Part shown: piece by piece, positions 1 to 31,947 of the stretch | How positions within the stretch are numbered: the stretch's first letter is position 1 | Layout of the letters: every line of letters begins with the position of its first letter | Origin: Candidatus Zambryskiibacteriota bacterium | GTDB lineage: Bacteria; Patescibacteriota; Minisyncoccia; Phycocordibacterales; DATGWK01 | Length of the DNA stretch: 32,682 bases | Direction: 5' to 3' | Assembly (NCBI GenBank): GCA_023264565.1 | Contig: JAHFLV010000007.1 | Coordinates: 1 to 32,682, forward strand | The notes under the pieces: model-generated | The model's input: the letters and a program-made list of their open reading frames with translations, nothing else | Databases searched by the model: none | Told to the model about the DNA's origin: nothing | Program-made: the position numbers and the translations under genes

Positions 1-13
1 TAGAATTTCTCAT
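1..13 (-). CDS. 5' end of a gene running off the left edge (MRNS...)
   Basis: Minus-strand ATG at 13, GGAG about 9 nt upstream, and a promoter at 93-121. Only 4 codons are visible. Confidence 0.4.
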
Positions 14-92
14 TGCTACTGACTCCGTTAATATGATGAGGATGGTTTCTTACGGTCCCGAACATCGGAACTTTGGTTTTCAGTCCTTCCGA

Positions 93-121
93 AAGGTAAC
101 ATATATTTTATATTATGTCAA
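93..121 (-). promoter_or_regulatory. sigma70-type promoter TTGACA-N17-TACCTT
   Basis: Perfect -35 at 116-121, 17-nt spacer, -10 at 93-98; points leftwards. Confidence 0.6.
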
Positions 122-225
122 CAAACGGTTAAACCTGAGGTTTCGAAAGAATTTAAACTAAACTTTTTTCGTCGACTGTAGTATATTAGATACCTACTTA
201 GCTTTAATTAGCCTCAAAAACTCCA

Positions 226-846
226 ATGAAAGATGAACAAGATCACAAAAAAGTAGGGGCGGAAGATACTCAGGACGCTGGGCCGGAAATCACCACCGAC
301 ACCGGTGACGATGTGAGCCTTGAGCAAGACAGTGAATTCAGCGAACACACTGCGCGACAAAATAAAGATGTGGTTGCCGATCTCCGAGCTCGACTCAAAA
401 AAAGCGACGAGGAAAAACGAGAATATCTGACCGGCTGGCAAAAACTGAAAGCTGATTATATAAATTCTCGAAAACAGGACGAAGAAGACAATAAACGCCG
501 CATCAAATATGCCGAAGAAGAACTTTTGACTGAGCTCGCTCCGGTTTTAGACAGTTTTGAAATGGCTTTTGCAAATAAAGAAGAGTTGGCAAAGCTTCCT
601 GAAGTTTGGCGAAAAGGAGTCGAACAAATTCACAATCAATTCTTTGCGATTCTCACGAATCATAAAGTAAAAATTATTGATCCACTTGGCGAGCCATTTG
701 ATCCTCGCGAGTCCGAAGCAGTTGGAATTGTGGAGGTAACCGATCCAAAGCAAGACGACGTAGTCATTTCTGTTCTTCAAAAAGGATATAAGGTGCACGA
801 TAAAATCATCCGACCGGCGAAAGTACGAGTTGGAAAACTCGCATAA
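226..846 (+). CDS. grpE: Nucleotide exchange factor GrpE
   Basis: KADYINSRK coiled coil, FDPRESEAV and KGYKVHDKIIRPAKVRV motifs; upstream of dnaK. Confidence 0.97.
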   Translation: MKDEQDHKKVGAEDTQDAGPEITTDTGDDVSLEQDSEFSEHTARQNKDVVADLRARLKKSDEEKREYLTGWQKLKADYINSRKQDEEDNKRRIKYAEEELLTELAPVLDSFEMAFANKEELAKLPEVWRKGVEQIHNQFFAILTNHKVKIIDPLGEPFDPRESEAVGIVEVTDPKQDDVVISVLQKGYKVHDKIIRPAKVRVGKLA

Positions 847-908
847 AACAGGAAATCGGCCGCGATTGGTAAGTATTTTGCCCGATTTTCCGGCCATTTT
901 GACAGGAC

Positions 909-937
909 TTGAAATTTGGGTCGGGGCCGAATATACT
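909..937 (+). promoter_or_regulatory. Promoter for dnaK, (C)TTGAAA-N17-TATACT
   Basis: -35 at 909-914, -10 at 932-937, 17-nt spacer. Confidence 0.55.
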
Positions 938-1001
938 TTGCTCACTACAGATACGAAAGGAAGCGTGATTTTTTTAGTAAAAACATTAAATTCATAAAAC
1001 C

Positions 1002-2924
1002 ATGGCAAAAATAATTGGAATTGATTTGGGAACAACAAATTCTGCAGTCGCCGTCATGGATATCGGCGGCCCAAAAATTTTAGAAAACGCGGAGGGTGCA
1101 CGAACCACTCCATCTATTGTCGCGATCTCAAAAACCGGCGAACGACTCGTTGGTCTTTTGGCAAAACGCCAGTCTGTGACCAACCCTAAGGGCACAATCG
1201 TCGGCATCAAGCGCTTTATTGGCCACACATTTGAGGATCCTGCAGTTCAGAAAGACAAAGCCAACGTTCCATATGACATCATCAAAGGCACCGACGGTGG
1301 CGTTCAGGTCACCATGTCAGGCAAAAATTATCGACCAGAAGAAGTTTCTGCGATGATTTTGGCAAAAATTAAAGCTGATGCGGAAGCAAAACTCGGCGAG
1401 AAAGTGACCGAAGCAATCATCACCGTTCCAGCATACTTCAACGACGCTCAGCGAAAAGCGACAAAAGACGCGGGTCAGATCGCAGGTTTGGATGTAAAAC
1501 GAATCATTAATGAACCAACAGCTGCTGCGCTCGCATATGGATTCAATAAAAAGAAAGAAGAGAAGATCGCAGTCTTCGATTTCGGTGGCGGTACATTCGA
1601 TATCTCTATTTTGGAAGTCGGCGATGAGGTTGTTGAAGTAAAATCAACCGACGGTGACAGTCATTTGGGTGGACGCGACATCGACCAGAAAATCATCAAT
1701 TGGATTGCGGACGAATTCAAGAAAGAAAACGGTATCGATCTCCGAACCGATGCGTTTGCCTTGCAGCGCCTCGATGAAGCAGCGGAAAAGGCAAAAATCG
1801 AGCTCTCAACCGCGATGGAAACTGAAATCAATATTCCATTCGTAACCTCAGACGCCTCTGGTCCAAAGCATTTGATTTTGAAAATGAGTCGAGCAAAGCT
1901 CGAAGATCTCACCAAAGAGTTCATCGACCGCGCTCTGATGATCACCAAGAGAGCCATGGAGGCATCGCCATTCAAAGTTGGCGAGCTCAATGAAGTTATT
2001 CTTGTTGGAGGCCAAACTCGCATGCCTAAGATCGTTGAGGAGGTTAAGAAATTCTTTGGAAAGGAACCGAACAAGTCTATTAACCCAGATGAAGTCGTGG
2101 CACTCGGTGCTGCGATCCAGGGTGGAATTATTTCCGGCGACGTTAAAGACATTCTCTTGCTCGATGTTATTCCGCTTTCTCTCGGTATTGAAACCATGGG
2201 AGGTGTTTCTACAAAACTCATTGAAAAGAACACAACGGTTCCGGCTTCTAAATCTCAAGTTTTCTCAACCGCAGCCGACAACCAAACATCTGTCGAAATT
2301 CACGTTCTTCAAGGTGAACGACCAATGGCGAGCGACAATAAAAGTCTTGGCCGATTTATTTTGGACGGCATTCCACCAGCACGACGCGGTATGCCGCAAG
2401 TTGAAGTTACTTTTGACATCGATGCGAACGGAATTTTGAGCGTCAAAGCAAAAGACAAAGCTTCAAACCGCGAACAATCTATCCGAATCGAAGCAAGCTC
2501 CGGTCTTTCAAAAGACGACATTGCAAAGATGCAGAAGGACGCCGAAGTTCATGCCGCAGAAGATGCTAAGAAGAAAGAAGTAATTGAAGCCAAAAATTTG
2601 GCTGAGCAGCTCATTTACACTTCTGAAAAAGCCCTCGAAGATGCTGGAGCAAAAGTTCCAGACGACGTAAAGAAACCAATTACTGAAAAGATCGAAACTC
2701 TTAAGAAAGAAAAAGCGGGCGACAATCTCGACTCAATAAAAAAAGCTACAACCGAGCTTTCAAACGAAATTCAGAAAATCGGACAGTATATGCAAGGACA
2801 AGCTGGCGGACAAAATCCTGGCTCAAATCCAGATCAGTCTGCAGGTGGCAACTCTGATAGCAACGGCCCAGATGGCGACAATGTTCGCGATGCTGAATAC
2901 AAAGAAAATCCTCCGAAGCAATAG
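1002..2924 (+). CDS. dnaK: Chaperone DnaK (Hsp70)
   Basis: [25 protein letters not shown] and LVGGQTRMP signatures. Confidence 0.99.
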
Positions 2925-4043: not shown

Positions 4044-4047
4044 ATAG

Positions 4048-4074
4048 AAAAACCCGCGGTTCACGCGGGTTTTT
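4048..4074. terminator. Bidirectional intrinsic terminator
   Basis: AAAAACCCGCG-GTTCA-CGCGGGTTTTT between convergent genes. Confidence 0.85.
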
Positions 4075-4097
4075 GCTTGTAGAAACGTGGAGGTTGC

Positions 4098-4598
4098 TTA
4101 AGCCGACTCTTTCTGCTCCTTCCAGGATGGGCGGTATGGGAACATATCCATACAGCTCCATCTTTTGTAGTGTGCCGCGTGTGCAGTGCACAGATACACA
4201 TTACACACTGAGCCCCAGATATTTATCCACACGATCTCGGCTTGTTCGTGAGAACATTCATCAACCATGCACCTTTTTCGAGGTGAAAGCCGCGCCTTCA
4301 GAACTGCCACGGTACGCCACATGGTGCCAAAGTGCTTGTTTGCGTAGTACTCTGGGTCCCAGTCTGGTTCACGACGAAGTTCTCTTGCCGGGCACATATA
4401 GTATTCCCAGTTTGAATTCCTTTCTCTTTCGTCATGCGCAGAATAGAACATCAGACTGTCTCTTCGATCAAACCGCACGAGGATTTGGGGTGGTCTCCAG
4501 AAACGAAGTTGCACCTCTACGACGAGCCCTTGCTTGTTGTGGAAAATCGAACCGCGATCGATGTCCCTCACGATGTCACCTGGCATCAATATGGCCAT
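4098..4598 (-). CDS. Hypothetical protein; possible SH3-like N-terminus and C-terminal Zn-binding motif
   Basis: GGAG SD and own promoter; PGDIV...GLVVEV pattern; CMVDEC...CTAH. Confidence 0.7.
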   Translation of the reverse strand: MAILMPGDIVRDIDRGSIFHNKQGLVVEVQLRFWRPPQILVRFDRRDSLMFYSAHDERERNSNWEYYMCPARELRREPDWDPEYYANKHFGTMWRTVAVLKARLSPRKRCMVDECSHEQAEIVWINIWGSVCNVYLCTAHAAHYKRWSCMDMFPYRPSWKEQKESA

Positions 4599-4642
4599 AG
4601 CTGTACTCCAGAGAATGAGATTTTTAGAACGATTCTGCCCTA

Positions 4643-4671
4643 AAAGTACTCTTCGATATGAGATATGTCAA
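4643..4671 (-). promoter_or_regulatory. sigma70 promoter TTGACA-N17-TACTTT for the 4598 orphan
   Basis: -35 at 4666-4671, -10 at 4643-4648. Confidence 0.65.
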
Positions 4672-6452: not shown

Positions 6453-6479
6453 ATCGTACATATAATCCGCGCCATATTT

Positions 6480-18512: not shown

Positions 18513-18544
18513 AACTGATTTTTTGTTTCGTCGTTACGAAGAGA

Positions 18545-19119: not shown

Positions 19120-19148
19120 ATACTAGCACATTTAAAACAGCCTGTCAA
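19120..19148 (-). promoter_or_regulatory. sigma70 promoter TTGACA-N17-TAGTAT with extended TG
   Basis: -35 at 19143-19148, -10 at 19120-19125; implies a leader of about 90 nt. Confidence 0.7.
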
Positions 19149-19276
19149 TGACAAAATGGAAATTTCATGGTGTAGCTATAGCTAAAATATGGCCTATAAT
19201 AAGGCTTTTTTATGAAAAAACACCCCCCTTCCCTTTCAAAAATTGATATAGACAAAAGAAAACTGACCGAGAAATC

Positions 19277-19867: not shown

Positions 19868-19879
19868 GGGTTTTATATA

Positions 19880-20167: not shown

Positions 20168-20168
20168 A

Positions 20169-20537: not shown

Positions 20538-20621
20538 TCGACAATTATATCAGAAAAGATATAGAGAAATTGAAGAATTTTTAAAGGAATTTAGCGAATT
20601 TTAGACAAAATTTAGAACAAT

Positions 20622-20894
20622 ATGGCAACAAAAAAAGCCGGTGGCTCAACAAAAAACGGTAGAGATTCAAATCCAAAATACCTTGGCGTTAAGGTAAATA
20701 CTGGTGAACTCGCTCCTGCGGGTGCTGTTGTCGTACGTCAGCGAGGAACAGACGTTCTTCCTGGCCGAAACGTTGGTATGGGCTCTGACCATACTCTCTA
20801 TGCTCTTAAAGAAGGCATCGTTTCTATCTCAAAGACTCGAAAGACTCATTTCGATAACTCATCAAAGAGCAAGAAAATCCTTCACATTTCTTAA
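20622..20894 (+). CDS. rpmA: 50S ribosomal protein L27
   Basis: [27 protein letters not shown]. Confidence 0.98.
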
Positions 20895-20919
20895 TCCTCT
20901 CGGCAGAAGCCTAACGATA

Positions 20920-20954
20920 ACAAAAAACCGCTTCCAGAAATGGGGCGGTTTTTT
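20920..20954 (+). terminator. rpmA terminator; repeat of 18478-18512
   Basis: AAAAAACCGCTTC-CAGAAAT-GGGGCGGTTTTTT. Confidence 0.85.
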
Positions 20955-20957
20955 CGA

Positions 20958-20985
20958 TTGACAAATGGTATTTTTACGATATTGT
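20958..20985 (+). promoter_or_regulatory. sigma70 promoter TTGACA-N16-TATTGT
   Basis: Directly after the terminator and upstream of the 21024 orphan. Confidence 0.55.
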
Positions 20986-21023
20986 TTTTTCAGAAATGAA
21001 ATGAGATTGAACTAGGGGGAAAC

Positions 21024-21380
21024 ATGAAGAAGTCACGATGGAAGTTTGCCTTTGGTTTTGTTTGGTTTTTAATCACTACGGGCTTCTGGCCAAACATTAC
21101 ACTTATCACCGGACTAAGGTTGTTGGGGCATTTCCTGTTCCCTAACGTCGACAGTATCAAAAACCCATATGTATTTGTGGCAATTCTGGCAGTTTGCATT
21201 CTGGGTCTTTGGAGAACTTGGAAGCAACTTCAAAACACTCTTCAAGAAGACAGAACAAACTACCGGCAGCGCTATGGTCAATGTGTGGGATGCGGGTACG
21301 ATCTTCGCGGAATTGAGCCGTCAATAATTTGTGATCAAGGATATCGTCGAAGATGTCCTGAGTGCAGCAAAATCGCCTAA
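21024..21380 (+). CDS. Two-TM protein with C-terminal zinc ribbon (CxxCGYDLRG...CPEC)
   Basis: AGGGGG SD; two hydrophobic segments; two CxxC pairs. Confidence 0.75.
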   Translation: MKKSRWKFAFGFVWFLITTGFWPNITLITGLRLLGHFLFPNVDSIKNPYVFVAILAVCILGLWRTWKQLQNTLQEDRTNYRQRYGQCVGCGYDLRGIEPSIICDQGYRRRCPECSKIA

Positions 21381-21394
21381 CGAGGCGATTTTTT
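21368..21394. terminator. Bidirectional terminator overlapping the orphan stop codon
   Basis: AAAATCGCCT-AACG-AGGCGATTTTTT between convergent genes. Confidence 0.75.
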
Positions 21395-21416
21395 CATGCA
21401 CAAATTGGTAGCAAAC

Positions 21417-21860
21417 CTACGCCGCAACAATTTCAACAGAAAGCATTGCAATCTTATCCTCTGTTCCAATCTTTACCTTATGAGTTCCGGTTTCCTTGAG
21501 GGGTTTATCCAAAAGCACCATGTCTGCGGAAACGTCGAGATGCGCCTGAGATTTGAGAGCTGCGACAATTTCGGCAGTGTGGATTCCAGAGAAAAGATGA
21601 CCCTTTTCATTCGCCTTTGCAGAAATCTTCAATTTTGCCTCAGAGATAGCGGCCATATTTTTTTCAAAAAGTGCATGCTGAACTTTTTTCTCTGCTTCAG
21701 CAGCCTTCATGATAAGTGCATGTTGCTTTTCAGCTTCTGGGGTAGCCATAACCGCATACCCATTTGGGATAAGGAAGTTTAAAGCAAAACCACTTGAAAC
21801 AGTCTTGATCTGATTTTTTCGGGCAATATTTTGTAAATCACGCTTAAAGATAACTTTCAT
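21417..21860 (-). CDS. rplI: 50S ribosomal protein L9
   Basis: MKVIF, GFALNFLIPNGYA, GHLFSGI. Confidence 0.96.
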   Translation of the reverse strand: MKVIFKRDLQNIARKNQIKTVSSGFALNFLIPNGYAVMATPEAEKQHALIMKAAEAEKKVQHALFEKNMAAISEAKLKISAKANEKGHLFSGIHTAEIVAALKSQAHLDVSADMVLLDKPLKETGTHKVKIGTEDKIAMLSVEIVAA

Positions 21861-21911
21861 ATATGTGGATTATTCTGTTAGTTTCCGCTAGTAGTAGTGC
21901 CGAAAACTCTA

Positions 21912-23177
21912 TCACTTTTTGAGCAAAATCTCAACCGCTTTTGAAAGCTGCGGATCGCGACCAGCTTTGGCATCTGCCTCAGTAATTTCGACAGGAACGT
22001 CAGGTTTTAGCCCGCCAGCAGAGATTGACTGACCGTTTGGAGTGAGCCACCGTGCAATAGTAACCTTGAGTGAAGAATCAGTGGTGATTTTTACGAGTTC
22101 CTGTACAGATCCCTTTCCAAAAGATGTGGTTCCAACAAGTGTTGCGATGCCATGTTCAGAGAGTGCACCAGCAAGAATTTCGGCTGCAGACGCAGAACCC
22201 TTGTCGATCAAAATAGCCATTTTAAGATTACTTCCGAAAATGTCATAGCCACGACTTCGGTGAATGAGTTCGTCGCGGTTGTCTTTGTAGTCCTCTCGAA
22301 CCACAACTTGACCCGGAGGCAAGAACCAACTTGCCATATCTACTGCGGCTTCAAGGAAGCCTCCTGGATTGCCTCGAAGATCAAGAACGAGCTTGTGTGA
22401 ACCAGTTTTTACAAACTGACGAAGCGCGTCTCGGAAGAGATTTGGGGATGTTGCAGAGAAGCTATAGAGGCGAATAACGAACACGCCGTCAGATCGCATC
22501 TGATAATCGAGTGTTGGAATATCGATAACAGCGCGGGTGACAGAAATTTCGAGTGGCTTTGGGGCGGTGGTTGGTTTTGCACCAGAAACAGTCGCGGGGT
22601 CGTCTCGAAGAATCGTAAGTTTGACCTTTGTACCAACCTTTCCACGGATCAAGCGTACTGCTTGGTCGGTATTGAGGTTATCAGTCAGTGTGTCGTCGAT
22701 TTTTAGAATCTTGTCACCTGGTTTAATACCCGCTCGAGCGGCTGGTGTTCCCTTTAATGGAGAAATAACAGTCAAAACACCGTTCTGCACACCGATTTCC
22801 ATACCCACGCCTTCGAAGTTTCCGGCAATGTCGCTTTCAAAGATTTTTGCTTCTTCTGGAGGCAAGAAAACCGTGTATGGGTCGTGCAATGCAGCGACCA
22901 TACCACCAATAGCACCCCAGACACGTTCTTGGCTGGTGGCACCTTTGGCACTTGAGGTTGCGGTTGAAACAAACTTTTCATCCAAGGTTCTCCAGGCTTT
23001 CCAAAACGGACTAAAATCGGCATTGATGTCTGCTGGTGTAGCCAAACTTCCCACAGAAACACCGCTCAGTGAATCATTACTTTTATTTGTACCAAGTTTA
23101 TAACCAGCAAAAAAAGAAACTCCTATAATAAGGAGAGCTGTGGTGGCATAGGTGATTCGTTTTGAACTATAGTTCAT
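21912..23177 (-). CDS. ctpA: Carboxyl-terminal processing protease (S41A, PDZ)
   Basis: DPYT, GVGMEI PDZ, DLRGNPGG, SASAAEI, FGKGSVQ. Start moved to the ATG at 23177. Confidence 0.92.
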   Translation of the reverse strand: MNYSSKRITYATTALLIIGVSFFAGYKLGTNKSNDSLSGVSVGSLATPADINADFSPFWKAWRTLDEKFVSTATSSAKGATSQERVWGAIGGMVAALHDPYTVFLPPEEAKIFESDIAGNFEGVGMEIGVQNGVLTVISPLKGTPAARAGIKPGDKILKIDDTLTDNLNTDQAVRLIRGKVGTKVKLTILRDDPATVSGAKPTTAPKPLEISVTRAVIDIPTLDYQMRSDGVFVIRLYSFSATSPNLFRDALRQFVKTGSHKLVLDLRGNPGGFLEAAVDMASWFLPPGQVVVREDYKDNRDELIHRSRGYDIFGSNLKMAILIDKGSASAAEILAGALSEHGIATLVGTTSFGKGSVQELVKITTDSSLKVTIARWLTPNGQSISAGGLKPDVPVEITEADAKAGRDPQLSKAVEILLKK

Positions 23178-23293
23178 CAGTTTGTATATTGTCTCAAAGC
23201 CCAAATCGAGAGTCAACGGATTCAAAATATTTCAGAACATATTTCAAATCAAATTTCTATTAAGAAGATATCAAAAAGTGATATGATAGTGCC

Positions 23294-24781
23294 ATGATAT
23301 TTTATAATACTCTCACTAAAAAGCTCGATGTCTTCAAACCTCTCAAAAACACCGATGGTCATGTTCATATGTATCACTGTGGCCCGACAGTCTACAACTT
23401 TGCCCATATCGGCAACCTTCGCTCCTATGTATTTGCCGACACCTTGCGCCGGGCACTAGAACTAGAAACCTACAGCATCAACCAAGTCATTAACATTACC
23501 GACGTTGGTCATCTTACCAACGACACAAGTGATCAAGGTCAAGATAAAGTCGAAGCCGGTGCCAAACGGGAAAACAAAACTGTTCGGGAAATTATTGATT
23601 TTTATACCAAAGCGTTTTTGAGTGATCTCCAAAGTTTAAATGTTCGAACCGAAGGTACAAAATTTCCTAAAGCAACCGATCATATTGATGATCAAATCGA
23701 TCTCATCCGCACACTCGAAGAAAAAGGCTACACCTACACCACTTCTGACGGTGTGTATTTTGATACTGCGAAATTTAGCGATTATGGAAAGCTAGGACAC
23801 ATTGATCTGGCTAATCTCGAAGAAGGTGCTCGAATTGCCAAAAATCCAGAAAAAAGAAGTCCAACAGATTTTGCGTTATGGAAATTTTCTCCAAAACCAA
23901 CGGATAAATCGACCGACGGGAAAATCGAGAACACAACAGTCGCAAAGCGTCAGCAAGAATGGGATTCTCCATGGGGTATTGGTTTTCCAGGTTGGCATAT
24001 CGAATGTTCTGCAATGGCTATGAAATATTTGGGTGAGACTTTTGATATTCATACTGGCGGTATCGACCACATCCCCGTGCATCACAACAACGAAATTGCT
24101 CAGTCTGAAGCCGCAACTGGCAAACAATACGTAAAGTATTGGATGCACAATGAATTCGTAAATATTGAGGGCGACAAAATGTCGAAGTCCAAAGGAAATT
24201 TTATGCGCCTCAAAACGCTTGAGGATGCAAAAATTCATCCGCTGAGTTATCGATACTGGCTGCTTACTGCCCACTATCGCTCCCCTATTATTTTTAGTTT
24301 CGAAGCAGTGCAAGCAGCACAAAATGCTTTTGAAACCGTACTTCTAAAAATTGCTGCTGCTCAACAAAAAGAAAAAGATGTACACGCATCGTTTGCAGTC
24401 GAGGGTCCAGGGAAAAACGAAAAGTTCGCACGAGTAGCCCTTGGTGAGTTTCTCGGTAAAGATCTCGATACTCCAGGTGCTATCGCCTACCTTCATGAAT
24501 TTGTGACTGAGATGGCCGCAGGAAAAAGATCAGTCGAAGAATTAAAATATTTTGATGAAGCCCTTGGCTTGAGGCTTTTGGATTTGGCCTCCTACATGAC
24601 CGAAGTTCCAGAAAAAATTAAGAAATTATCAATGGAACGTGAAAATTTCCGTACGTCAAACAACTGGGCAGAATCCGACAGAATTCGTAAAGAAATCGAA
24701 AATATGGGCTACATAGTGAGCGATACAGCCGCGGGTACCAAAATTCATCGCCCACTTTCTTCGCTCATTGGAGTCCTATAA
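23294..24781 (+). CDS. cysS: Cysteine--tRNA ligase
   Basis: CGPTVY, HIGN, DFALWK, PGWHIECSAM, KMSKS. Confidence 0.98.
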   Translation: MIFYNTLTKKLDVFKPLKNTDGHVHMYHCGPTVYNFAHIGNLRSYVFADTLRRALELETYSINQVINITDVGHLTNDTSDQGQDKVEAGAKRENKTVREIIDFYTKAFLSDLQSLNVRTEGTKFPKATDHIDDQIDLIRTLEEKGYTYTTSDGVYFDTAKFSDYGKLGHIDLANLEEGARIAKNPEKRSPTDFALWKFSPKPTDKSTDGKIENTTVAKRQQEWDSPWGIGFPGWHIECSAMAMKYLGETFDIHTGGIDHIPVHHNNEIAQSEAATGKQYVKYWMHNEFVNIEGDKMSKSKGNFMRLKTLEDAKIHPLSYRYWLLTAHYRSPIIFSFEAVQAAQNAFETVLLKIAAAQQKEKDVHASFAVEGPGKNEKFARVALGEFLGKDLDTPGAIAYLHEFVTEMAAGKRSVEELKYFDEALGLRLLDLASYMTEVPEKIKKLSMERENFRTSNNWAESDRIRKEIENMGYIVSDTAAGTKIHRPLSSLIGVL

Positions 24782-24799
24782 ACAAGTTGCAAACATCCT

Positions 24800-26227
24800 A
24801 TGCAGAAAAACACAACAAACTATTCACCCCGCTCTGCTAGTATGAATGGCATGCAAAACATGCGACCGAACCTGAGAATTCCTCCACAAAATCTCGACGC
24901 GGAGACCGCGCTTTTGGGTTCGATCATGCAGCGCCCTGATGTCATCTACGAAATGGGAGACATCGTCAGCGCCGAATCTTTTTACGCAGAAAAGCATCGT
25001 TTGATTTTTGTCGTCATGATGGAGCTTTTCAAAAGAAGTTCCCCGATCGATCTCCTTTCAGTTTCTGCTCGACTCAAAGAAAAAGGCCAGCTCGAACAAC
25101 TTGGCGGTTCAAGTTATTTGGCCGAACTTGTTCAGGGCGTGCCGTCTTCAACCAACGCACTCTACTACGCTCAGATTGTGCAGAAAAAATACATGATGCG
25201 TCGCCTCATTGAAGCGGCCGAGCATGTTTCAAATTTAGGATACGACGAATCCACCGATATCGAAGAAATTCTTGATCGTGCAGAAAAACACGTTTTCGAC
25301 GTCACCAACTTTTCTACCGCTCATAAATTTATCGAACTCAAAGACGAACTTTCCGAGGCCTGGGAACGTCTCGACAAACTCCACAACACCAAAGAAGGTC
25401 TTCGAGGTGTTCCGACAGGCTTTGCCGAACTCGACGGCAAACTCGCCGGCTTCCAAAAATCCGATCTCATCATCCTTGCCGCTCGACCATCAATGGGAAA
25501 AACTTCCCTTGCGCTCGACATCGCTCGTTATTCTGCAGTCAACCACAACACTCCTGTTGGAATCTTTTCTCTTGAAATGAGTTCACAGCAGCTTGTCGAC
25601 CGTATGCTTGCAGCGCAGTCAAACGTCGACGCTTGGAAACTCCGAACTGGAAAATTGAACCGTGCGGAAGAATTCGAATCAATCCGCCAGTCGCTTGACC
25701 AACTTTCGAAAGCACCAATTTTCATTGACGACCAGCCAGGTAACAACATTTTAAAGATGCGCTCAGTCGCCCGTCGACTCAAAAGCGAAAAAGGTCTTAA
25801 GCTTTTGGTCGTTGATTACCTCCAGCTCATGGTGCCACTTGGTTCAAAAGCCAGTGACAACTTAGTCCAGCAAGTGACCGAAATTTCCCGATCCCTTAAA
25901 AACTTGGCCCGTGAACTCGACGTGCCGGTTCTTGCACTTTCCCAGCTTTCCCGAGCCGTTGAACAACGCGGAGGTCGCCCTCGTCTTTCAGACCTCCGAG
26001 ACTCCGGTTCTATCGAACAGGACGCCGACGTCGTGCTTTTTATTCATCGCGAAGACAAATACAAAGAAGAATCAGAGAAAAATAATATCGCTGAAATTTT
26101 GATTGAAAAGCATCGAAACGGCGAAACCGGCAAGGTTGAACTCTATTTCAATGATAAGAAAGTTACTTTCCAGAGCATGGCTAAGGGCGAATATGGTGGT
26201 GCCGAAAAAGAATTTGCGAACTTCTAA
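24800..26227 (+). CDS. dnaB: Replicative DNA helicase
   Basis: ARPSMGKT, FSLEM, VDYLQL, SDLRDSGSIEQDAD, KHRNG. Exact start uncertain. Confidence 0.98.
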   Translation: MQKNTTNYSPRSASMNGMQNMRPNLRIPPQNLDAETALLGSIMQRPDVIYEMGDIVSAESFYAEKHRLIFVVMMELFKRSSPIDLLSVSARLKEKGQLEQLGGSSYLAELVQGVPSSTNALYYAQIVQKKYMMRRLIEAAEHVSNLGYDESTDIEEILDRAEKHVFDVTNFSTAHKFIELKDELSEAWERLDKLHNTKEGLRGVPTGFAELDGKLAGFQKSDLIILAARPSMGKTSLALDIARYSAVNHNTPVGIFSLEMSSQQLVDRMLAAQSNVDAWKLRTGKLNRAEEFESIRQSLDQLSKAPIFIDDQPGNNILKMRSVARRLKSEKGLKLLVVDYLQLMVPLGSKASDNLVQQVTEISRSLKNLARELDVPVLALSQLSRAVEQRGGRPRLSDLRDSGSIEQDADVVLFIHREDKYKEESEKNNIAEILIEKHRNGETGKVELYFNDKKVTFQSMAKGEYGGAEKEFANF

Positions 26228-26274
26228 TACCAATATACTCAGGCGAAATAAAGTTTCGATTAATTTTTATTAAA

Positions 26275-26889
26275 ATGAATTCGTTTAACCGACTTATTGA
26301 AATATTCTCTGACTTCCCTGGCATTGGGCCGCGTCAAGCCAAGCGCTTTGTCTATTTTCTTTTAACCAAGCCGCCAGCATATACTGGCGAACTTTTGCGC
26401 GCTATCGAAAATCTCAAAAACAATACCCAAACCTGCAGCTCATGCTACAGAATTTTTAATAAAAATGGTGGAATGGCCACACTGTGTTCAATTTGCTCAG
26501 ACAGAAATCGCGACCACTCACTTCTGGCCGTTGTATCACGCGACAGTGACCTCGAAAGTCTCGAAAAAAGCGGCTCATATAATGGTCTGTATTTCGTACT
26601 TGGTGGCATAGTTCCGATCCTCGAAAATGATCCTGAAAAATATGTGCGCAGTCGAGAACTTTTCACTTCGGTCGAAAAAAGAATCGGTGATGGACTTACC
26701 GAAGTCATTCTTGCTATGAGTGCCAACGCCGATAGTGAAAATACTGGTCAATTTGTCGACCGACTTCTTGTTCCATTTAAAGAAAGGGGCCTCAAAATTT
26801 CTCTCCTTGGCCGTGGCCTTTCAACTGGCACCGAACTTGAATATTCTGACGCCGACACCCTTCGAAACGCGCTCAAAAATAGAAAGTAA
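26275..26889 (+). CDS. recR: Recombination mediator RecR
   Basis: PGIGPRQAKR HhH, C4 zinc finger, Toprim domain, ELEYSD. Confidence 0.95.
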   Translation: MNSFNRLIEIFSDFPGIGPRQAKRFVYFLLTKPPAYTGELLRAIENLKNNTQTCSSCYRIFNKNGGMATLCSICSDRNRDHSLLAVVSRDSDLESLEKSGSYNGLYFVLGGIVPILENDPEKYVRSRELFTSVEKRIGDGLTEVILAMSANADSENTGQFVDRLLVPFKERGLKISLLGRGLSTGTELEYSDADTLRNALKNRK

Positions 26890-26918
26890 ACTCAGTTTTA
26901 GTTCATATTAGAGATCTA

Positions 26919-26947
26919 TTGACTTAAGGTAAATTTAATGATACTGT
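26919..26947 (+). promoter_or_regulatory. sigma70 promoter TTGACT-N17-TACTGT (extended TG)
   Basis: -35 at 26919-26924, -10 at 26942-26947. Confidence 0.65.
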
Positions 26948-26981
26948 TTACCCAGAAGCATTTTAAAGAAAGGGGGCTTCG

Positions 26982-27302
26982 ATGTTGAATCAGCTGATGA
27001 GCTATCTACATCCCTTGATCTCAACGATCATTGTGTTTGTAGTTCTCATGGCCATTCTAAGCTATGGTTTCGCCTATATGTTTGGCGGCCAGAGCTACGC
27101 GAATCGTGTTCGCGTGAAGCTCATGGACTTCTTTATCTGGAGTCCACTCAAATGGCTCCGGAGAAAGTTGATCTACGAACCGGCCAAGTATCTCAAGAAA
27201 AAGGCCAAGGCGTGGGCAACCAGTCTACTTCGGTGGGCTGGAAGAGGGATCATGGCATTGCTTCGTCGATTTTGGGTCAAGGTCAGGGCTTGTTGGCCCT
27301 GA
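26982..27302 (+). CDS. Hypothetical membrane protein with basic, Trp-rich C-terminus
   Basis: AAGGGGG SD; N-terminal TM helix; own promoter and terminator. Confidence 0.7.
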   Translation: MLNQLMSYLHPLISTIIVFVVLMAILSYGFAYMFGGQSYANRVRVKLMDFFIWSPLKWLRRKLIYEPAKYLKKKAKAWATSLLRWAGRGIMALLRRFWVKVRACWP

Positions 27303-27311
27303 CCTTTTTTT
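27281..27311 (+). terminator. Intrinsic terminator overlapping the stop codon
   Basis: GGTCAGGGC-TTGTTG-GCCCTGACC-T7. Confidence 0.85.
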
Positions 27312-27312
27312 A

Positions 27313-27341
27313 TTGACTTACATTATTTACTGATTTACAAT
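27313..27341 (+). promoter_or_regulatory. sigma70 promoter TTGACT-N17-TACAAT
   Basis: -35 at 27313-27318, -10 at 27336-27341. Confidence 0.75.
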
Positions 27342-27376
27342 CCTCTTTGGTCATTTTACAAAGAAGGAGGCATTGA

Positions 27377-27544
27377 TTGGCACGAACCAGAAGATCGTTT
27401 AGTCCAAGCAAGGGTGTCGCAAAGGCTCGGAGGTACCAGGAAGACTTGCGGGCATCCCGCGGTTTCCACTGCTCCACTCTTGCTCCACCGACTCATGGAC
27501 CAAGCAGACGGAAGTTTCCTCGCCGACTTGCGGGCACACATTAG
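27377..27544 (+). CDS. 55-aa Arg-rich peptide (MARTRRSFSPSKGVAKARRYQEDLRASRGFHCSTLAPPTHGPSRRKFPRRLAGTH)
   Basis: AAGGAGG 6 nt upstream of TTG 27377; bracketed by a promoter and a terminator; not in the ORF track. Confidence 0.6.
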   Translation: MARTRRSFSPSKGVAKARRYQEDLRASRGFHCSTLAPPTHGPSRRKFPRRLAGTH

Positions 27545-27572
27545 TAACCCCACGTAACTCGACCAACCCCAT

Positions 27573-27600
27573 GCTCACGCGACACCGCGTGAGCTTTTTT
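27573..27600 (+). terminator. Intrinsic terminator
   Basis: GCTCACGCG-ACAC-CGCGTGAGC-T6. Confidence 0.85.
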
Positions 27601-27625
27601 ATTCTCCTAGATCTTTTTATATCTA

Positions 27626-27653
27626 TTGACATATAATTTTAAAATTGTAAAAT
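27626..27653 (+). promoter_or_regulatory. sigma70 promoter TTGACA-N16-TAAAAT
   Basis: -35 at 27626-27631, -10 at 27648-27653. Confidence 0.65.
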
Positions 27654-27712
27654 CTTCCAAGAATTGCTCACTGAAATACTGCTAAACAAAAGAACACAGA
27701 AGGAGGCTCATT

Positions 27713-28600
27713 TTGGAACAGAACGGCGCGGAAAAGAAAAGTCCGCTTATCGGACTCGTTGGAGTAGTAGGAATCTGGGTTACGGCGGGACTCGCCCTGC
27801 CATTTGTAAACGTGCGGAAGGAGTTTACACCCGAACAGCTGATGGTGTTTCGTGGTTTCTTACCTGCCCTGATCGCGTTTGTGTTGCTTCGGGGCAAGAT
27901 CGGTAAGGTGGACAAATACACCTGGTTGATCGGCCTCACACTTCCCCTTGCAACCCTCGGCTTGTTTGAGGGTATTCGCAACTGGGGCGTTGGTCCGACA
28001 TTAATTGTCGTCACGGGGACGCCGGTTGTAAACTTCTTCATTGGAAGATTTCTGAAGAGACCGGTGTCGGATATGACGATCACGAGTCTGATAATCATGA
28101 TTTGCGGAGTTGCTCTCGCCTGCAAGGGCGGACACTTCAACTGGCCGGGGTTCCTCTGGAGCGTCGAGGGAACGATTGCGAACGGTATTCTGTACGAACT
28201 ATTCGCCAGGGCAAAAACCAAGCCGCTACAAAAATGCTTCTTTTCATGCTTCGGCATGGGTGCTCTTGGTCTGCTACTCAGTTTCGCTGATGCCACACCC
28301 TGGGTAGCAGAAACCTTCACCCTACCAATGACCCTTCAATTAGTTACCTTTGCTTTCGTTGGCGGTTTCCTGTACTGGATTGCCAACCAGGCCGCCTTCA
28401 AGCATCTGGAGACTATGCGGGCGAGCGTTCTCGCGCAAGGAGAGACACCCGCGGCAATGATCGGCGCCTACCTTCTGCTCGGAGAAAAACTGAGTATGAA
28501 TCAGTGGGTCGGAACAATCATCGCGCTTGCGGCCGCAGTCTCTTTGGTCTACGCTACAGCCAAAGAAGCAAAAGAACCTGCAGCAGTAGCTACAACATAA
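27713..28600 (+). CDS. EamA/DMT family transporter
   Basis: 10 TM helices, FRG motif, ETPAAMIGAYLLLGEKLS; AAGGAGG SD with TTG start. Confidence 0.88.
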   Translation: MEQNGAEKKSPLIGLVGVVGIWVTAGLALPFVNVRKEFTPEQLMVFRGFLPALIAFVLLRGKIGKVDKYTWLIGLTLPLATLGLFEGIRNWGVGPTLIVVTGTPVVNFFIGRFLKRPVSDMTITSLIIMICGVALACKGGHFNWPGFLWSVEGTIANGILYELFARAKTKPLQKCFFSCFGMGALGLLLSFADATPWVAETFTLPMTLQLVTFAFVGGFLYWIANQAAFKHLETMRASVLAQGETPAAMIGAYLLLGEKLSMNQWVGTIIALAAAVSLVYATAKEAKEPAAVATT

Positions 28601-28611
28601 ACACAACAATG

Positions 28612-28644
28612 TGCCGCCCTGGCTTTCGGGGCGGTTTTCTTTTG
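28612..28644 (+). terminator. Intrinsic terminator of the EamA gene
   Basis: GCCGCCCTG-GCTTT-CGGGGCGGT followed by TTTCTTTT. Confidence 0.75.
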
Positions 28645-28650
28645 TTTACA

Positions 28651-28792
28651 AAAGTCTCCACTCATTTGAAGGAGACTTTCGGAACCCGAGCAATGACCTC
28701 TTTGTGAAGTAAAAGTATGCGAGGGTGAGAGGGAGCAAAAAACCACCGGAAGGTGGTTTTTATGCGTGCTCCTGAAAATGAGTGGAGACTTT
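28651..28792. repeat. Long-arm palindromic element, copy 1
   Basis: 24-bp inverted arms (28651-28674 / 28769-28792), 22/24 complementary, enclosing two hairpins. Confidence 0.8.
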
Positions 28793-29111
28793 ATTTAATC
28801 TTCTCGATCTGAACCTTCATGAATGGCTGTCGGTGACCGTTTTTCTTGAAGTATCGGCTCTTTTGTTTGTATTTGATCACAGTAACCTTTGGAGCTCGGC
28901 CAGCTGATTTGAAAGTGGCTTCAACCTTTGCACCTGAAATGAAAGGTGTGCCGATAGTAGTATTTGAACCGTCATCAACCAAGAGAACCTTGTCGAAAGT
29001 GACCTTATCACCTTCTTTCATATCACCATCAAGCTTCTCAATAGTAATAACATCGCCAGATTTTACCTGGTATTGCTTGCCGCCGGTTTCGATGACTGCG
29101 TATTCGTTCAT
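28791..29111 (-). CDS. rplU: 50S ribosomal protein L21
   Basis: YAVIETGGKQY, IGTPF, GHRQPF. Start moved to the ATG at 29111. Confidence 0.98.
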   Translation of the reverse strand: MNEYAVIETGGKQYQVKSGDVITIEKLDGDMKEGDKVTFDKVLLVDDGSNTTIGTPFISGAKVEATFKSAGRAPKVTVIKYKQKSRYFKKNGHRQPFMKVQIEKIK

Positions 29112-29225
29112 ATCCGGATATTCTACATATATACGGGAAAAATGCAACAAATAGGCCCAATAGAGCCGTTATTTGGGCAAAACACAGTAGATAGCCTGAA
29201 AGGCATCAGAACCCTTGTGTTACCA

Positions 29226-29253
29226 TTGACTTTTTATAAATTAGTGCTATTAT
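29226..29253 (+). promoter_or_regulatory. sigma70 promoter TTGACT-N16-TATTAT (extended TG)
   Basis: -35 at 29226-29231, -10 at 29248-29253. Confidence 0.7.
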
Positions 29254-29328
29254 AAATACAGAAGCTGGTTATGTTTCCAGCCCTGATCCACGAAGGAATC
29301 GTGGAAACTCCATTTGTTGGGAGATGTC

Positions 29329-29400
29329 ATGAACAAGTCTCGAGTCGCGTTCTATGCCTTTCTGGCAATCATGCTCGGCTTCGCTCTGGCCTCGATCTAA
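29329..29400 (+). CDS. 23-aa hydrophobic peptide MNKSRVAFYAFLAIMLGFALASI
   Basis: GGGAG SD 5 nt upstream; structured leader; terminator downstream; not in the ORF track. Confidence 0.6.
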   Translation: MNKSRVAFYAFLAIMLGFALASI

Positions 29401-29423
29401 TCCATCAAACTGAAGATTCGAAC

Positions 29424-29453
29424 ACCGCCCGCACTCTGTGCTGGCGGTTTTTT
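29424..29453 (+). terminator. Intrinsic terminator
   Basis: ACCGCC.GCAC-TCT-GTGC.GGCGGT-TTTTT. Confidence 0.8.
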
Positions 29454-29488
29454 ATTACACACGAACAATCAAATATTATTTAAGAAAG

Positions 29489-29643
29489 AAAAAACCCACC
29501 ATGCTTTGCAGCTAGGTGGGTGTCGACAAGCTAGGTCCTGATGGAACTTATTGTCTGGGTCAGACAGAGAATGTTCGAACGCACTCTCTTTCTCTTACCA
29601 CTTCGGACTTTCATCCGCGTATTGGTTCCCGGACCGCTCGTGT
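29489..29643 (-). ncRNA. Candidate ~155-nt structured sRNA with its own promoter and terminator
   Basis: Promoter TTGACC-N16-TAGGAT (29650-29677); closing stem plus three internal hairpins; terminator ACCCACC/GGTGGGT plus T tract at 29489-29521. Confidence 0.6.
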
Positions 29644-29716
29644 TTGGATATCCTAACTCTTTAATGATTTCGGTCAAGGATTATCCTCGTTTTATTTTTC
29701 TGTTTTTAATCCCTGT

Positions 29717-30823
29717 TTATTCTTCCTGGTCAGTATCGGGTTTTGCGACAATCACAGACTCGAGTCCGGCTGAATTTCCAGCGATTTTCAAAACGTCTTT
29801 ATCAATTTTTAAAAGTTCTTTTTGAGCACGGTTGTAGTGGTTTACCGTTGTACCAAGAGATGAGCCAAGCGACGACATGTATTGGTCGTATGCAGCAATA
29901 TGTTTACCTAAATCCTCTACCCTCTTTCGAATCTCTTTAGCTGATTCTTCGATTTGTAGTGCCTTGAGACCCTGGAGAACGGTCTGGAGATATGCCAAGA
30001 AAGATGTTGGTGAGGTAATGATGACTCGGCGATCTTTGAAGGCGTATTCGATAAGGTCACGAGTATTCACTTTAACCGCACCAACCTGAGCGACCAGAAG
30101 GTCATAATAGATGGCTTCGTGCGGAATAAACATGAACGCAAAGTCCATAGTGTTTTCAGCTGGCTTTACGTACTTTGAAGTTTCATCGATGCGGTTTTTG
30201 AGATCGCGACGAAACGCGGTTTCGAGCTCTTCACGTCGAACTGGATCTTTTTCATCAACTAAACGATTGTAATTTTCGAGAGAAAACTTTGAGTCGATCG
30301 GAATGATTTTATCTTTTACAAAAACCACAGCGTCGACGATCGTGCCATCGTTGAACTCGTACTGCATTTGGTAGCTGCCGGTCGGCATCACGTTCTTCAA
30401 AAGGGTTTCCAAATAGTATTCACCCAAAATACCGCGTTGCTTTGGATTTTTCAAAATGTCCTGCAAAGACTGAAGCTGGTCAGCAAAAGACACAACTTGT
30501 TTGTTTGTTTCGTCGAGCTTAGTGAGCCCCATAGTGACATCGCGAATGAGCTTTGCGGATTCACCGAACTGATTTCGCATCGATTCGTTTTGGTTGCGCA
30601 TTGATTCACTCACCTGTCGGTTGGTCTCGCCCATTTTGGCATCGATAGTTTTTGAAAGTTCGTTAATATGCTGGAGCATGAGTGACATGGCTGGATCTGG
30701 CTTCCCCGCCAATTCATCTTCTGACTTTTTTGCATTACTAAGCCGTTGCATCAAAACCCACAGAAAACCAGCGTTTAATAAAACAATAATTGCGACGATT
30801 ATGATGACAGCGGTAGTAGACAT
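29717..30823 (-). CDS. rmuC: DNA recombination protein RmuC
   Basis: N-terminal TM helix, coiled coil, KQRGILGE, PIDSKF, DFAFMFIPHE, SPTS. Confidence 0.93.
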   Translation of the reverse strand: MSTTAVIIIVAIIVLLNAGFLWVLMQRLSNAKKSEDELAGKPDPAMSLMLQHINELSKTIDAKMGETNRQVSESMRNQNESMRNQFGESAKLIRDVTMGLTKLDETNKQVVSFADQLQSLQDILKNPKQRGILGEYYLETLLKNVMPTGSYQMQYEFNDGTIVDAVVFVKDKIIPIDSKFSLENYNRLVDEKDPVRREELETAFRRDLKNRIDETSKYVKPAENTMDFAFMFIPHEAIYYDLLVAQVGAVKVNTRDLIEYAFKDRRVIITSPTSFLAYLQTVLQGLKALQIEESAKEIRKRVEDLGKHIAAYDQYMSSLGSSLGTTVNHYNRAQKELLKIDKDVLKIAGNSAGLESVIVAKPDTDQEE

Positions 30824-30870
30824 GGGGCAATTATACTACAGGGCGCGGCTTATGATACTATTTTCTCCAT

Positions 30871-31326
30871 ATGACACTTCAAGAAAAAATCAAAAGCGAT
30901 ATGGTTCAGGCAATGAGAGACAAAGACGCTGTAAAGGTTAGCGTTCTTCGCGGTCTTATGGCCAATTTCACAACTGAACTTGTGAATAAAAAGCGAAAGC
31001 CAGATGAAGTATTAAGTGACGAAGAAGTTACGACCGTCATCATGCGAGCTATCAAGCAACGCAAAGACTCAATCGACCAATTCAAAAAAGGTGGTCGCGA
31101 AGATCTTGTGGCTTCTGAAACAGCTGAGCTTGCGGTGATTGAAGGTTTCGCTCCTAAACTCATGTCTCCTGAAGAAATTATGGTATTCGCAAAACAAAAG
31201 AAAGCAGAAATGGATGTTGCTGATAAAACCGGAATGGGCAAACTCATGAGCGCTCTTATGAAAGATCTCAAGGGAAAAGCAGATGGTGCTGATGTTAAAA
31301 CGGCAGTTGAGTCGTTATTCCAATAA
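30871..31326 (+). CDS. yqeY: GatB/YqeY domain protein
   Basis: IKSDMVQAMR, KQRKDSIDQF..GGREDL, MGKLM...KGKADG. Confidence 0.92.
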   Translation: MTLQEKIKSDMVQAMRDKDAVKVSVLRGLMANFTTELVNKKRKPDEVLSDEEVTTVIMRAIKQRKDSIDQFKKGGREDLVASETAELAVIEGFAPKLMSPEEIMVFAKQKKAEMDVADKTGMGKLMSALMKDLKGKADGADVKTAVESLFQ

Positions 31327-31380
31327 CCAACCCTCCAGAAATAACATAAAAAATGCCCGCAAATTAGTGGCTTTTATATA

Positions 31381-31409
31381 TTGACAAATAGCATGAATAG
31401 TGCTATTAT
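31381..31409 (+). promoter_or_regulatory. sigma70 promoter TTGACA-N17-TATTAT (extended TG)
   Basis: Near-consensus elements at 31381-31386 and 31404-31409. Confidence 0.8.
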
Positions 31410-31470
31410 ACAAACAGAAATAACGTCACCGTGTTGGTGACAAAACAGCACTTTTACAGGAGCTAGAAAA

Positions 31471-31893
31471 ATGAATCAGCGTGATTTTGTTAACCGTATC
31501 ATGGGCTTCATGACAGCAATCGTACTCATCGCAATTCTTGCTTTTGTGTTCACCCACATTGGGGGCAAGACCGTCAGCGTGGAGTATGTGAATCTGCCAT
31601 CGGCCCGGGCGTTCAGCCTGCAGGTGCCGACCATCCAGAGCGAGAATGCGGTCTGGGCAACGAACACACCCTTCAAGATGACCTACATCTTCCCAGACAA
31701 GTCGCATGCGATCTACCAGACACCCGACAACCAGCTCGTGGAAACCACGAACAAGCAGGTCATCGACCTGGTCAACCGCAACGAGTACTTCGTCATAAAC
31801 GAAGGGGCGTATCGTGGTCCTCACGGCCTGATGAAGCTCACCGAGCATGACATCGACTTCACCAAGGCCGACTACTACGCCGTCGGCCCGTAA
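31471..31893 (+). CDS. Hypothetical single-TM protein
   Basis: AGGAG SD; N-terminal TM helix; codons visibly C/G-ending compared with neighbours. Confidence 0.75.
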   Translation: MNQRDFVNRIMGFMTAIVLIAILAFVFTHIGGKTVSVEYVNLPSARAFSLQVPTIQSENAVWATNTPFKMTYIFPDKSHAIYQTPDNQLVETTNKQVIDLVNRNEYFVINEGAYRGPHGLMKLTEHDIDFTKADYYAVGP

Positions 31894-31917
31894 ACTCGAA
31901 CGATATCGAGTACACCA

Positions 31918-31947
31918 AACACCTTGCGATAGCGCGGGGTGTTTTTT
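31918..31947 (+). terminator. Intrinsic terminator
   Basis: AACACCTTGCG-ATAG-CGCGGGGTGTT-TTTT. Confidence 0.8.

Follow-up and report, generated by a model that had tools for sequence, protein, structure and literature searches.

Results

Two Kinds of Gene in One Contig

The window examined in this study, 32,682 nt in length, is the entire contig JAHFLV010000007.1 (C13) of Candidatus Zambryskiibacteriota bacterium (GCA_023264565.1; host genome, G000), whose assembly of 580,066 bp in 48 contigs is rated 92% complete. The host is a bacterium of the Candidate Phyla Radiation (CPR), probably of the Paceibacteria/Parcubacteria type, from groundwater; the nearest named locus was that of a Candidatus Paceibacteria metagenome-assembled genome (MAG), with 90% identity over a 16S rRNA fragment only. 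Pfam searches of the window identified grpE, dnaK, dnaJ, trpS, scpA and scpB; a D-Ala-D-Ala carboxypeptidase, mraY, ftsW, murG, gltX and an M23 peptidase; and two glycosidases, rpmA, rplI, an S41 protease, cysS, dnaB, recR, rplU, rmuC and yqeY. These housekeeping genes form a syntenic run, together with a tRNA-Glu gene, which alone scored above threshold in an Rfam scan of the window. Ten small modules (A to J), nine of them coding, are accessory insertions in the intergenic junctions of this run, usually just behind a native terminator. We found that the modules carry classical translation signals including Shine–Dalgarno (SD) motifs, mismatched to a host ribosome whose 16S rRNA lacks the anti-SD sequence.

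A preliminary description of this DNA stated that the core genes mostly lack SD sites and that the modules possess them, and both statements agree with the sequence. In a reading of the 40 nt preceding 37 genes, all 29 native genes of the window showed an A/T-rich leader with no motif at the SD position. By direct reading, the nine coding modules have an SD-like element 4–9 nt before the start codon, canonical in every case save for the weak AAGGGA of module C, which encodes a DUF1653 protein.

SD-Led Genes Belong to the Accessory Genome

The genome-wide gene sets were obtained with a simple purpose-made gene caller and first-start rules; these add noise, with no evident way to create a contrast between conserved and accessory genes. 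Comparisons were made with the same-genus genomes G003, G004 and G007, and with G519, which belongs to another order of the same class. The statistics for G004 leave out its phage-like contigs C10 and C11. These two contigs (L045, L073 and L074), of about 23 kb each, represent either a phage or an element binned wrongly. Most of their genes are SD-led, their G+C content at third codon positions (GC3) is about 0.2, and among their products are a portal protein, an XkdF-type protease, a protein with a P22 antirepressor domain and a resolvase.

A strong SD motif at positions −18 to −4 was present in 25 of 553 host genes, as compared with 7–12 of about 535 for intervals further upstream, and 2.2% of intergenic intervals contained such a motif. 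Immediately upstream of start codons, G is depleted. Only 7 of the 25 SD-led host genes had a tblastn match in G004, as compared with 410 of the 519 others (Fisher p = 1.6e-7), and most of the conserved SD-led cases in the host are doubtful TTG starts. The reciprocal comparison gave 10/34 SD-led genes of G004 matched in the host, versus 434/615 others (Fisher p = 1.8e-6). When the motif was restricted to GGAG or GAGG ending 5–8 nt before the start, 26 hits were obtained among 127 accessory genes and 6 among 417 conserved genes of the host, and 36 among 205 and 1 among 444, respectively, in G004.

The two classes also differed in composition and in transcription signals. Mean GC3 of SD-led accessory, other accessory and conserved genes was 0.53, 0.43 and 0.41 in the host, and 0.55, 0.40 and 0.37 in G004 (Mann-Whitney p 5e-6 to 1e-13), and the module genes have atypical codon usage. 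In the host, a TTGACN-N15-18-TAnnnT promoter within 150 nt was found for 9/18 SD-led accessory genes, as compared with 11/410 conserved genes, and a terminator within 80 nt for 10/18 and 40/410, respectively. SD-led accessory proteins encoded elsewhere in the host genome had no family in 14 of 17 cases; the remaining three are a 73-aa protein resembling the C-terminal domain of RNA polymerase alpha, an OMP-decarboxylase-like protein and a radical-SAM protein. A census of the motif that ignored gene starts was uninformative, and SD-led open reading frames (ORFs) of at least 20 aa in unannotated gaps showed no excess (42, versus 34 in reversed sequence and a shuffled mean of 36.5, range 27–46). 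The tests anchored on genes are the informative ones, and they show that the two-tier organization proposed in the preliminary description is real and above chance across the genome, on statistically solid grounds: there is a sharp contrast between conserved and accessory genes in how often they carry an SD, a −35 promoter or a terminator.

The Host 16S rRNA Lacks the Anti-SD Sequence

After helix 45, the host 16S rRNA reads GGAATATTTCAATTTGAA, with the rRNA ending in ...GGAAUAUUUCAAUUUGAA, where the E. coli counterpart is GGAUCACCUCCUUA. A search for CCTCC (CCUCC, the anti-SD) found no occurrence anywhere in the host 16S gene, which is split across two contig ends (C17:1-1400, model positions 9-1228; and C7:1-345, the 3' part). 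The same type of tail (GGAWTWWTTCAA...) was seen in all 27 relatives with a recovered 3' end, from a sample of 40, and seven further members of the order share the CCUCC-less tail, giving 34/34 order relatives with a recovered tail. By the same procedure, G519 gave the canonical GGATCACCTCCTTA, and the CCUCC-less tail is therefore not an artefact of the method.

Loss of the anti-SD motif has been described for a Parcubacteria subgroup lacking uL1 (Tsurumaki et al. 2022, PMC9297842). The host resembles the bacteria treated in the relevant passages of that paper in its tail without CCUCCU, its small genome and the failure to find uL1. The latter (PF00687) was not found in the host genome, which is 92% complete, whereas a control family was detected in 14/14 genomes; absence from an incomplete genome is no proof. 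Ribosomal protein bS21 was likewise not found in the host genome, and an S1 protein with four domains is present. Those passages of PMC9297842 concern the rRNA trait only, and mention neither a minority of genes with canonical SDs nor leaderless promoters, both of which the host displays. The native genes lack SDs because the 16S rRNA has no CCUCC, and the SD-less core is explained by this published rRNA trait together with leaderless promoters.

Several observations concern the 16S region itself. The replacement tail GGAWTWWTTCAA(A/T)TTGAA is kept across many families of the order (loci L007-L035), with a variable spacer behind it, and it may have a function of its own. Pairing of native leaders with the new tail (complement UUGAAAUAU) was considered and rejected, as the enriched upstream 6-mers were generic A/T words and −10 boxes. 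Several relatives gave split matches in the 16S 3' domain, which suggests insertions there. Directly behind the 16S on C7 lies a further SD-led unit (AGGAGGAGGA before an ATG at C7:621).

Native Genes with Leaderless Promoter Signatures

Strong −10 boxes ending exactly 6 nt before the ATG were found in 32 of 411 ATG-start genes of the host and in 50 of 523 of G004, as compared with only 0–15 genes at any other spacer in these genomes. An example in the window is cysS (23279-23296, plus strand), where an extended −10 box (TGATATGAT) ends 6 nt before the ATG at 23294, which implies that the mRNA is leaderless; rmuC (ATG at 30823, minus strand) and an Ada-Zn gene (ATG at 20537, minus strand) are arranged in the same way. 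From this promoter signature, a −10 box 6 nt before the AUG with no −35, a sizeable share of the native genes is predicted to be leaderless. Leaderless-rich bacteria such as Deinococcus and Actinobacteria resemble the host in that many native genes have their −10 box at a constant distance of 6 nt from the start codon. Unlike in those bacteria, this arrangement in the host is joined to a complete loss of the anti-SD and is contrasted with an SD-led accessory class.

Modules Are Missing from Syntenic Sites of Related Genomes

When positions 17700-32682 were searched at the DNA level against the other genomes of the genus, seven in number, each core gene was matched, at 65–87% identity, and no match was obtained in 26889-28657, 20954-21416 or 29158-29729, nor over the DUF1653 gene. 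By tblastn, the syntenic regions of G003, G004 and G007 likewise contained no module counterparts. Against the whole of G004, tblastn placed all 29 native genes in one collinear block (C1:28178-81432) and matched none of the modules anywhere. The sole exception to this uniqueness is the orf140 module (J), of which an orthologous copy lies at another position in G003; this copy retains the promoter, the leader hairpin, the SD and the terminator, and its N-terminal coding part has diverged and is apparently broken. Among 300 genomes of the order, orf166 (module B) was found in four, and orf140 and orf118 (module D) in none. The 23-aa peptide of module H was not found in these 300 genomes either, and a word-based protein search yielded two proteins related to orf166 and no relative for the DUF1653 protein.

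The junctions themselves are variable. Between recR and rplU, the gap of 1.9 kb in the host holds three tandem cassettes, as compared with 31-138 bp and one bidirectional terminator in G004-G007, and G003 has a different, SD-less membrane gene at this site. The dnaJ/trpS junction carries orf166 in the host and 2.2 kb of other cargo in G004, and orf118 is absent at rpmA/rplI in G003, G004 and G007. Directly after yqeY, G004 has another cassette, comprising a TTGACA promoter, a CA-rich leader, GGAGGTG, a 110-aa ORF (GC3 0.59) and a terminator. The cassettes begin 3–25 nt behind terminators, in accordance with the location first noted for them, and the comparison with relatives indicates that the orphan genes are neither syntenic nor conserved.

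Contigs from a separate assembly (run X1), which may be the source sample, span, without a single difference, the junction from recR to module E and the segment from rplU to rmuC, modules H and I included. Among the contigs of runs X1 and X2 that match the window, no piece without a module was found. Two side observations were made on the surrounding synteny. The homologues of orf158 and of an RNase T-like gene, only 255 bp apart in the window, are separated by about 25 kb in G004 (C1:47485-72380). In addition, orf64 (31971-32400, minus strand) matches, at 71% identity, the C-terminal portion of a longer G003 frame that is methyltransferase-like by sequence; orf64 is probably a gene remnant.

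Structure of the Individual Modules

Six of the ten modules passed a scan for the TTGACN box with a properly spaced −10 that had been ascribed to nearly all of them, and four are weaker: those starting at 121 and 4671 (both minus strand) and at 26919, in which TTGACN is paired with a weak −10, and the one at 18477 (minus strand) with TTGTAA. Out of 12 positions, the scan matched 11 at 27626 and 31381, 10 at 20958, 27313 and 29226, and 9 at 29677 (minus strand), and the six best right-strand promoter matches in 17000-32682 are module promoters. Overall, 29 promoter-like sites were found, as compared with 24.2 ± 5.4 in shuffles; there is no enrichment, and the point is thus the location of the best sites rather than their number. 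GC-rich hairpin terminators are borne out for modules B to J: the five strongest of the scan close modules E, G, F, J and C, and those of modules B, D, H and I were plain from direct reading.

Module A (1-132, minus strand) has a candidate promoter at TTGACA (121-116) or TTAACC-16-TAAAAT (132-105), a leader of about 85 nt, GGAG at 26-23 and an ATG at 13-11, and its ORF runs off the contig end. Module B (4045-4671, minus strand) encodes the Cys/His-rich orf166 (4098-4598), which Pfam assigns to no family; its promoter, TTGACA (4671-4666) plus a weak −10, is followed by GGAG (4609-4606) 7 nt before the ATG, and the hairpin terminator at about 4050-4073 is common with dnaJ. The DUF1653 protein of module C (18046-18402, within 17989-18477, minus strand) is preceded by TTGTAA with the extended −10 TGCTACTAT and the weak SD mentioned above, and followed by a terminator at 18021-17994; TGCTACTAT is common to this promoter and the G003 copy of orf140. 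In module D (20958-21394, plus strand), TTGACA-16-TATTGT lies 3 nt after the rpmA terminator, and GGGGG (21015-21019) leads orf118 (21024-21380), a membrane protein with a C-terminal CxxC...CxxC, with a terminator at about 21368-21394.

The tandem array between recR and rplU consists of modules E, F and G, all on the plus strand. Module E (26919-27311) has TTGACT with a weak −10, GGGGG (26972-26976), the membrane protein orf106 (26982-27302) and a terminator at 27279-27306. In module F (27313-27600), TTGACT-17-TACAAT and AAGGAGG (27364-27370), 6 nt before a TTG start, precede orf55 (27377-27544), an Arg-rich frame of 55 aa and of uncertain coding status, and the terminator is at 27573-27594. 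Module G (27626-28644) encodes an EamA/DMT transporter (27713-28600) behind TTGACA-16-TAAAAT, a 52-nt leader and AAGGAGG (27700-27706) 6 nt before TTG, and ends in a terminator at 28613-28635.

The preliminary description gave module H (29226-29455, plus strand) a 70-aa frame, which has to be replaced by a 23-aa hydrophobic peptide (29329-29400); it has TTGACT-16-TATTAT, a leader of about 70 nt, GGGAG (29319-29323) and a terminator at about 29419-29452. Module I (29489-29677, minus strand) looks non-coding: TTGACC-16-TAGGAT would drive a structured RNA of about 155 nt (z = −4.7) ending in a terminator at 29489-29520. It belongs to no Rfam family and has no relative in the 300 order genomes; in 28600-29800, the best Rfam matches were no better than E about 1. 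A type I toxin-antitoxin pair formed by the 23-aa peptide and the convergent RNA was considered and rejected, as the duplex energy was equalled or beaten by 46/200 shuffles and no direct repeat is in common. Module J (31381-31947, plus strand) has TTGACA-17-TATTAT with a TG, a leader hairpin, AGGAG (31458-31462) and a terminator at 31917-31944, and encodes orf140 (31471-31893) with an N-terminal membrane anchor. The promoters of modules H and J (29242-29263 and 31398-31419) have a 22-nt core in common at 91% identity (TAGTGCTATTATA.A.ACAGAA).

The cargo of the window thus consists mostly of small membrane or Cys-rich proteins, of which Pfam names only the EamA/DMT transporter and DUF1653. Feature-atlas look-ups of orf166 and orf140 gave sub-threshold leads only, one of which points to a possible small beta-barrel at residues 5-80 of orf166.

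Distribution of the EamA Cassette Gene

The EamA gene occurs in 3/300 genomes of the order, in 1/400 of the class and in one named Candidatus Paceibacteria MAG. Relatives at 54–62% identity were found in more than 120 metagenomic clusters, and those with a source name are Patescibacteria or Parcubacteria. The gene has a GC content of 0.53 in module G, as compared with 0.43–0.45 for the flanks. In three of the four genomes measured (G000, G244 and G519), the gene exceeds its flanks in GC content; in the fourth, G041, it exceeds one flank only. In G519, whose anti-SD is canonical, the gene is also SD-led.

Repeats and Mobility Genes

Pfam searches of the window proteins found no integrase, transposase or recombinase domain, in agreement with the earlier remark that no integrase was in view. 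The host genome as a whole encodes one tyrosine recombinase (PF00589), on C40, and possesses the DNA-uptake gene ComEC.

A palindromic repeat of about 140 nt (28651-28792) with 24-nt terminal inverted arms lies between the EamA cassette and rplU, and the hairpin inside it probably terminates rplU transcription. Copies with 84–94% identity are located at C4:25435, C25:17152, C25:16475, C19:20294 and C1:436; G003 and G004 contain traces of the repeat. A 35-nt terminator hairpin occurs behind rpmA (20920-20954) and, in the opposite orientation, behind orf158 (18478-18512), in each case directly upstream of a cassette; there is a third, partial copy at C40:12193. A second palindromic element (32528-32668) adjoins tRNA-Glu; its 43-nt arms are 81% complementary, and partial copies occur at C6:5078, at C9:13746 and in genus relatives.

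Discussion

The missing anti-SD, the leaderless signature, the accessory status and foreign composition of the modules, and the turnover at their sites are all observed directly in the host and its relatives. We consider it rather probable, from these sequence comparisons, that the modules are horizontally acquired cassettes at integrase-free hotspots, and that they keep the expression grammar of SD-using donors. In this scheme, native genes would start translation without an SD, a sizeable share of them being leaderless, whereas the cassettes would be monocistronic units with a −35/−10 promoter, a leader of 30–70 nt, a canonical SD and an intrinsic terminator. The cassettes would be members of a flexible Patescibacteria gene pool, inserted between syntenic core genes. 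Their signals and higher GC3 would have been shaped in SD-using genomes, so that the SD travels with the cassette. The cassettes most likely keep their SDs, promoters and terminators because they were imported ready-made from SD-using relatives.

Several findings weigh against this interpretation. No donor was identified, and even the best EamA relatives are only 54–62% identical. Most accessory genes of the host (109/127) have no SD, and 18/127 pass the strict motif rule, which means that the cassettes represent only a subset of the flexible genome. A caveat on the 16S evidence is that the parts on C17 and C7 differ at 5 positions of their 98-nt overlap (94.9% identical), as could arise from a mixture of strains, from a second copy of the gene or from chimeric binning; a single 16S 3' region was present in each of the relatives assembled in 4-10 contigs. 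The SD is kept in 5/5 EamA orthologues from five anti-SD-less genomes, as the only conserved block of otherwise unalignable leaders. The elements AAGGAGG, AAAGGAGGTG, AAAGGATGGTG, AAAGGAGG and AAAGGAGGGTG lie 5-8 nt before TTG, ATG, TTG, GTG and TTG, respectively; three of the five starts are thus TTG and one is GTG, and such starts normally need the help of an SD. The SD is also kept in the orf140 module common to G000 and G003. Such retention is unexpected for a useless relic, unless every copy was recently imported.

These observations lead to an alternative explanation, which we regard as unlikely but not negligible, namely that the SD-like element works in anti-SD-less cells by a route other than the 16S tail, such as contact with a protein or another RNA, and that two translation regimes coexist. 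The EamA motifs with their four TTG or GTG starts fit this view, as do clear SD-like motifs in 3/5 orf166 copies (the host and four homologues), the sharp spacing peak at 5–8 nt in the accessory genes of both G000 (26 hits/127) and G004 (36/205), and the orf140 module, whose regulatory parts are better conserved than its N-terminal coding part. However, CCUCC occurs nowhere in the 16S, and we know of no mechanism for SD recognition without an anti-SD. The motifs reach AAAGGAGGTG, which is exactly complementary to the canonical tail and points to an origin on canonical ribosomes; the same EamA family is SD-led in an anti-SD-positive genome; and SD-led genes, foreign in composition, are almost never common to G000 and G004. 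That anti-SD-less ribosomes recognise the SD by another route, with the cassette grammar maintained by host selection and not merely inherited from the donor, seems to us rather improbable. We favour recent import of every copy from SD-using donors, because the composition is foreign, the distribution patchy and the turnover evident, and because the motifs complement the canonical tail exactly.

If the cassettes are imported, the kind of element that brings them has to be considered. Phage morons are single genes with their own promoter and terminator and a foreign composition, inserted between phage genes inside a prophage. The modules share the autonomous promoter and terminator, the deviant composition and the insertion between other genes, and the feature-atlas hits of orf166 lean towards small proteins of phages and Bacillota, but at chance-level scores of 0.77–0.82. 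They differ in lying outside any prophage: the flanks are core genes on both sides (dnaJ/trpS, rpmA/rplI, recR/rplU, rplU/rmuC and yqeY/tRNA), the contig contains no phage genes, 0/7 module proteins matched PHROGs and 0/3 had relatives in viral contigs. Morons or prophage remnants are thus a very unlikely source.

Integron cassettes, and the clusters of attC sites lacking integron-integrases (CALINs), are small, sometimes tandem orphan-gene cassettes that are mostly promoterless and bordered by attC. A site-specific system of this type that targets terminator hairpins would account for the three tandem cassettes between recR and rplU, for starts so close behind terminators, and for the 35-nt hairpin beside two modules and on C40 as well as the palindromic repeats beside the array. 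Nevertheless, we think it highly unlikely that such a system is at work here, as each cassette has its own promoter and terminator, unlike integron cassettes, and the modules are scattered over many junctions. No intI was found, there being no integrase in the contig and one tyrosine recombinase genome-wide; no attC was seen by eye, and the repeated hairpin is the native terminator of orf158 in G003. Inspection by eye of 22 promoter-anchored cassette borders, with no motif finder run, revealed no motif common to the borders other than the promoter.

Native, vertically inherited and highly expressed small genes might also be expected to have strong promoters and terminators, but the modules are missing at the syntenic sites in three genomes of the genus, have no counterpart anywhere in G004 and show atypical codon usage. 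An assembly artefact is at odds with the junctions reproduced by the contigs of run X1, and this explanation is very improbable.

The interpretation of the modules as acquired cassettes does not call for the undescribed acquisition route that had been envisaged, as no conserved boundary motif was seen by eye and the picture fits known integrase-free hotspots. Hotspots between core genes without integrases have been explained by double recombination in the flanking sequences (Oliveira et al. 2017, PMC5635113). As far as the relevant passages of that paper describe them, those hotspots share with the host sites a cargo that varies between the same syntenic core genes, a high turnover and no mobility genes, and the DNA-uptake gene ComEC of the host bears on the route of entry. 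The host sites differ in being tiny, with one to three genes, in that each cargo gene is its own transcription unit, and in the mismatch between the translation signal of the cargo and the host ribosome. By analogy, the cassettes can be regarded as a small-scale version of known transfer hotspots with moron-like units. Our literature search brought up no publication that deals with SD-led genes in CPR bacteria lacking the anti-SD, and the mismatch between cassette grammar and host ribosome appears not to have been described previously.

These results indicate that two expression layers within one cell, a native SD-less or leaderless layer and an imported layer with classical grammar, can be separated from sequence alone. 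An SD, a −35 promoter, a terminator and a high GC3 together form a simple marker of recent gene acquisition in these uncultured bacteria, in whose rigid, syntenic core there are small hotspots where cassettes are exchanged rapidly. The results also raise the question of whether and how ribosomes unable to pair with an SD translate mRNAs that carry one ahead of a TTG or GTG start. If the SD were recognised without an anti-SD, these bacteria would have two initiation regimes, one for a leaderless or SD-less core and one for an SD-led, TTG/GTG-tolerant pool of mobile cassettes.

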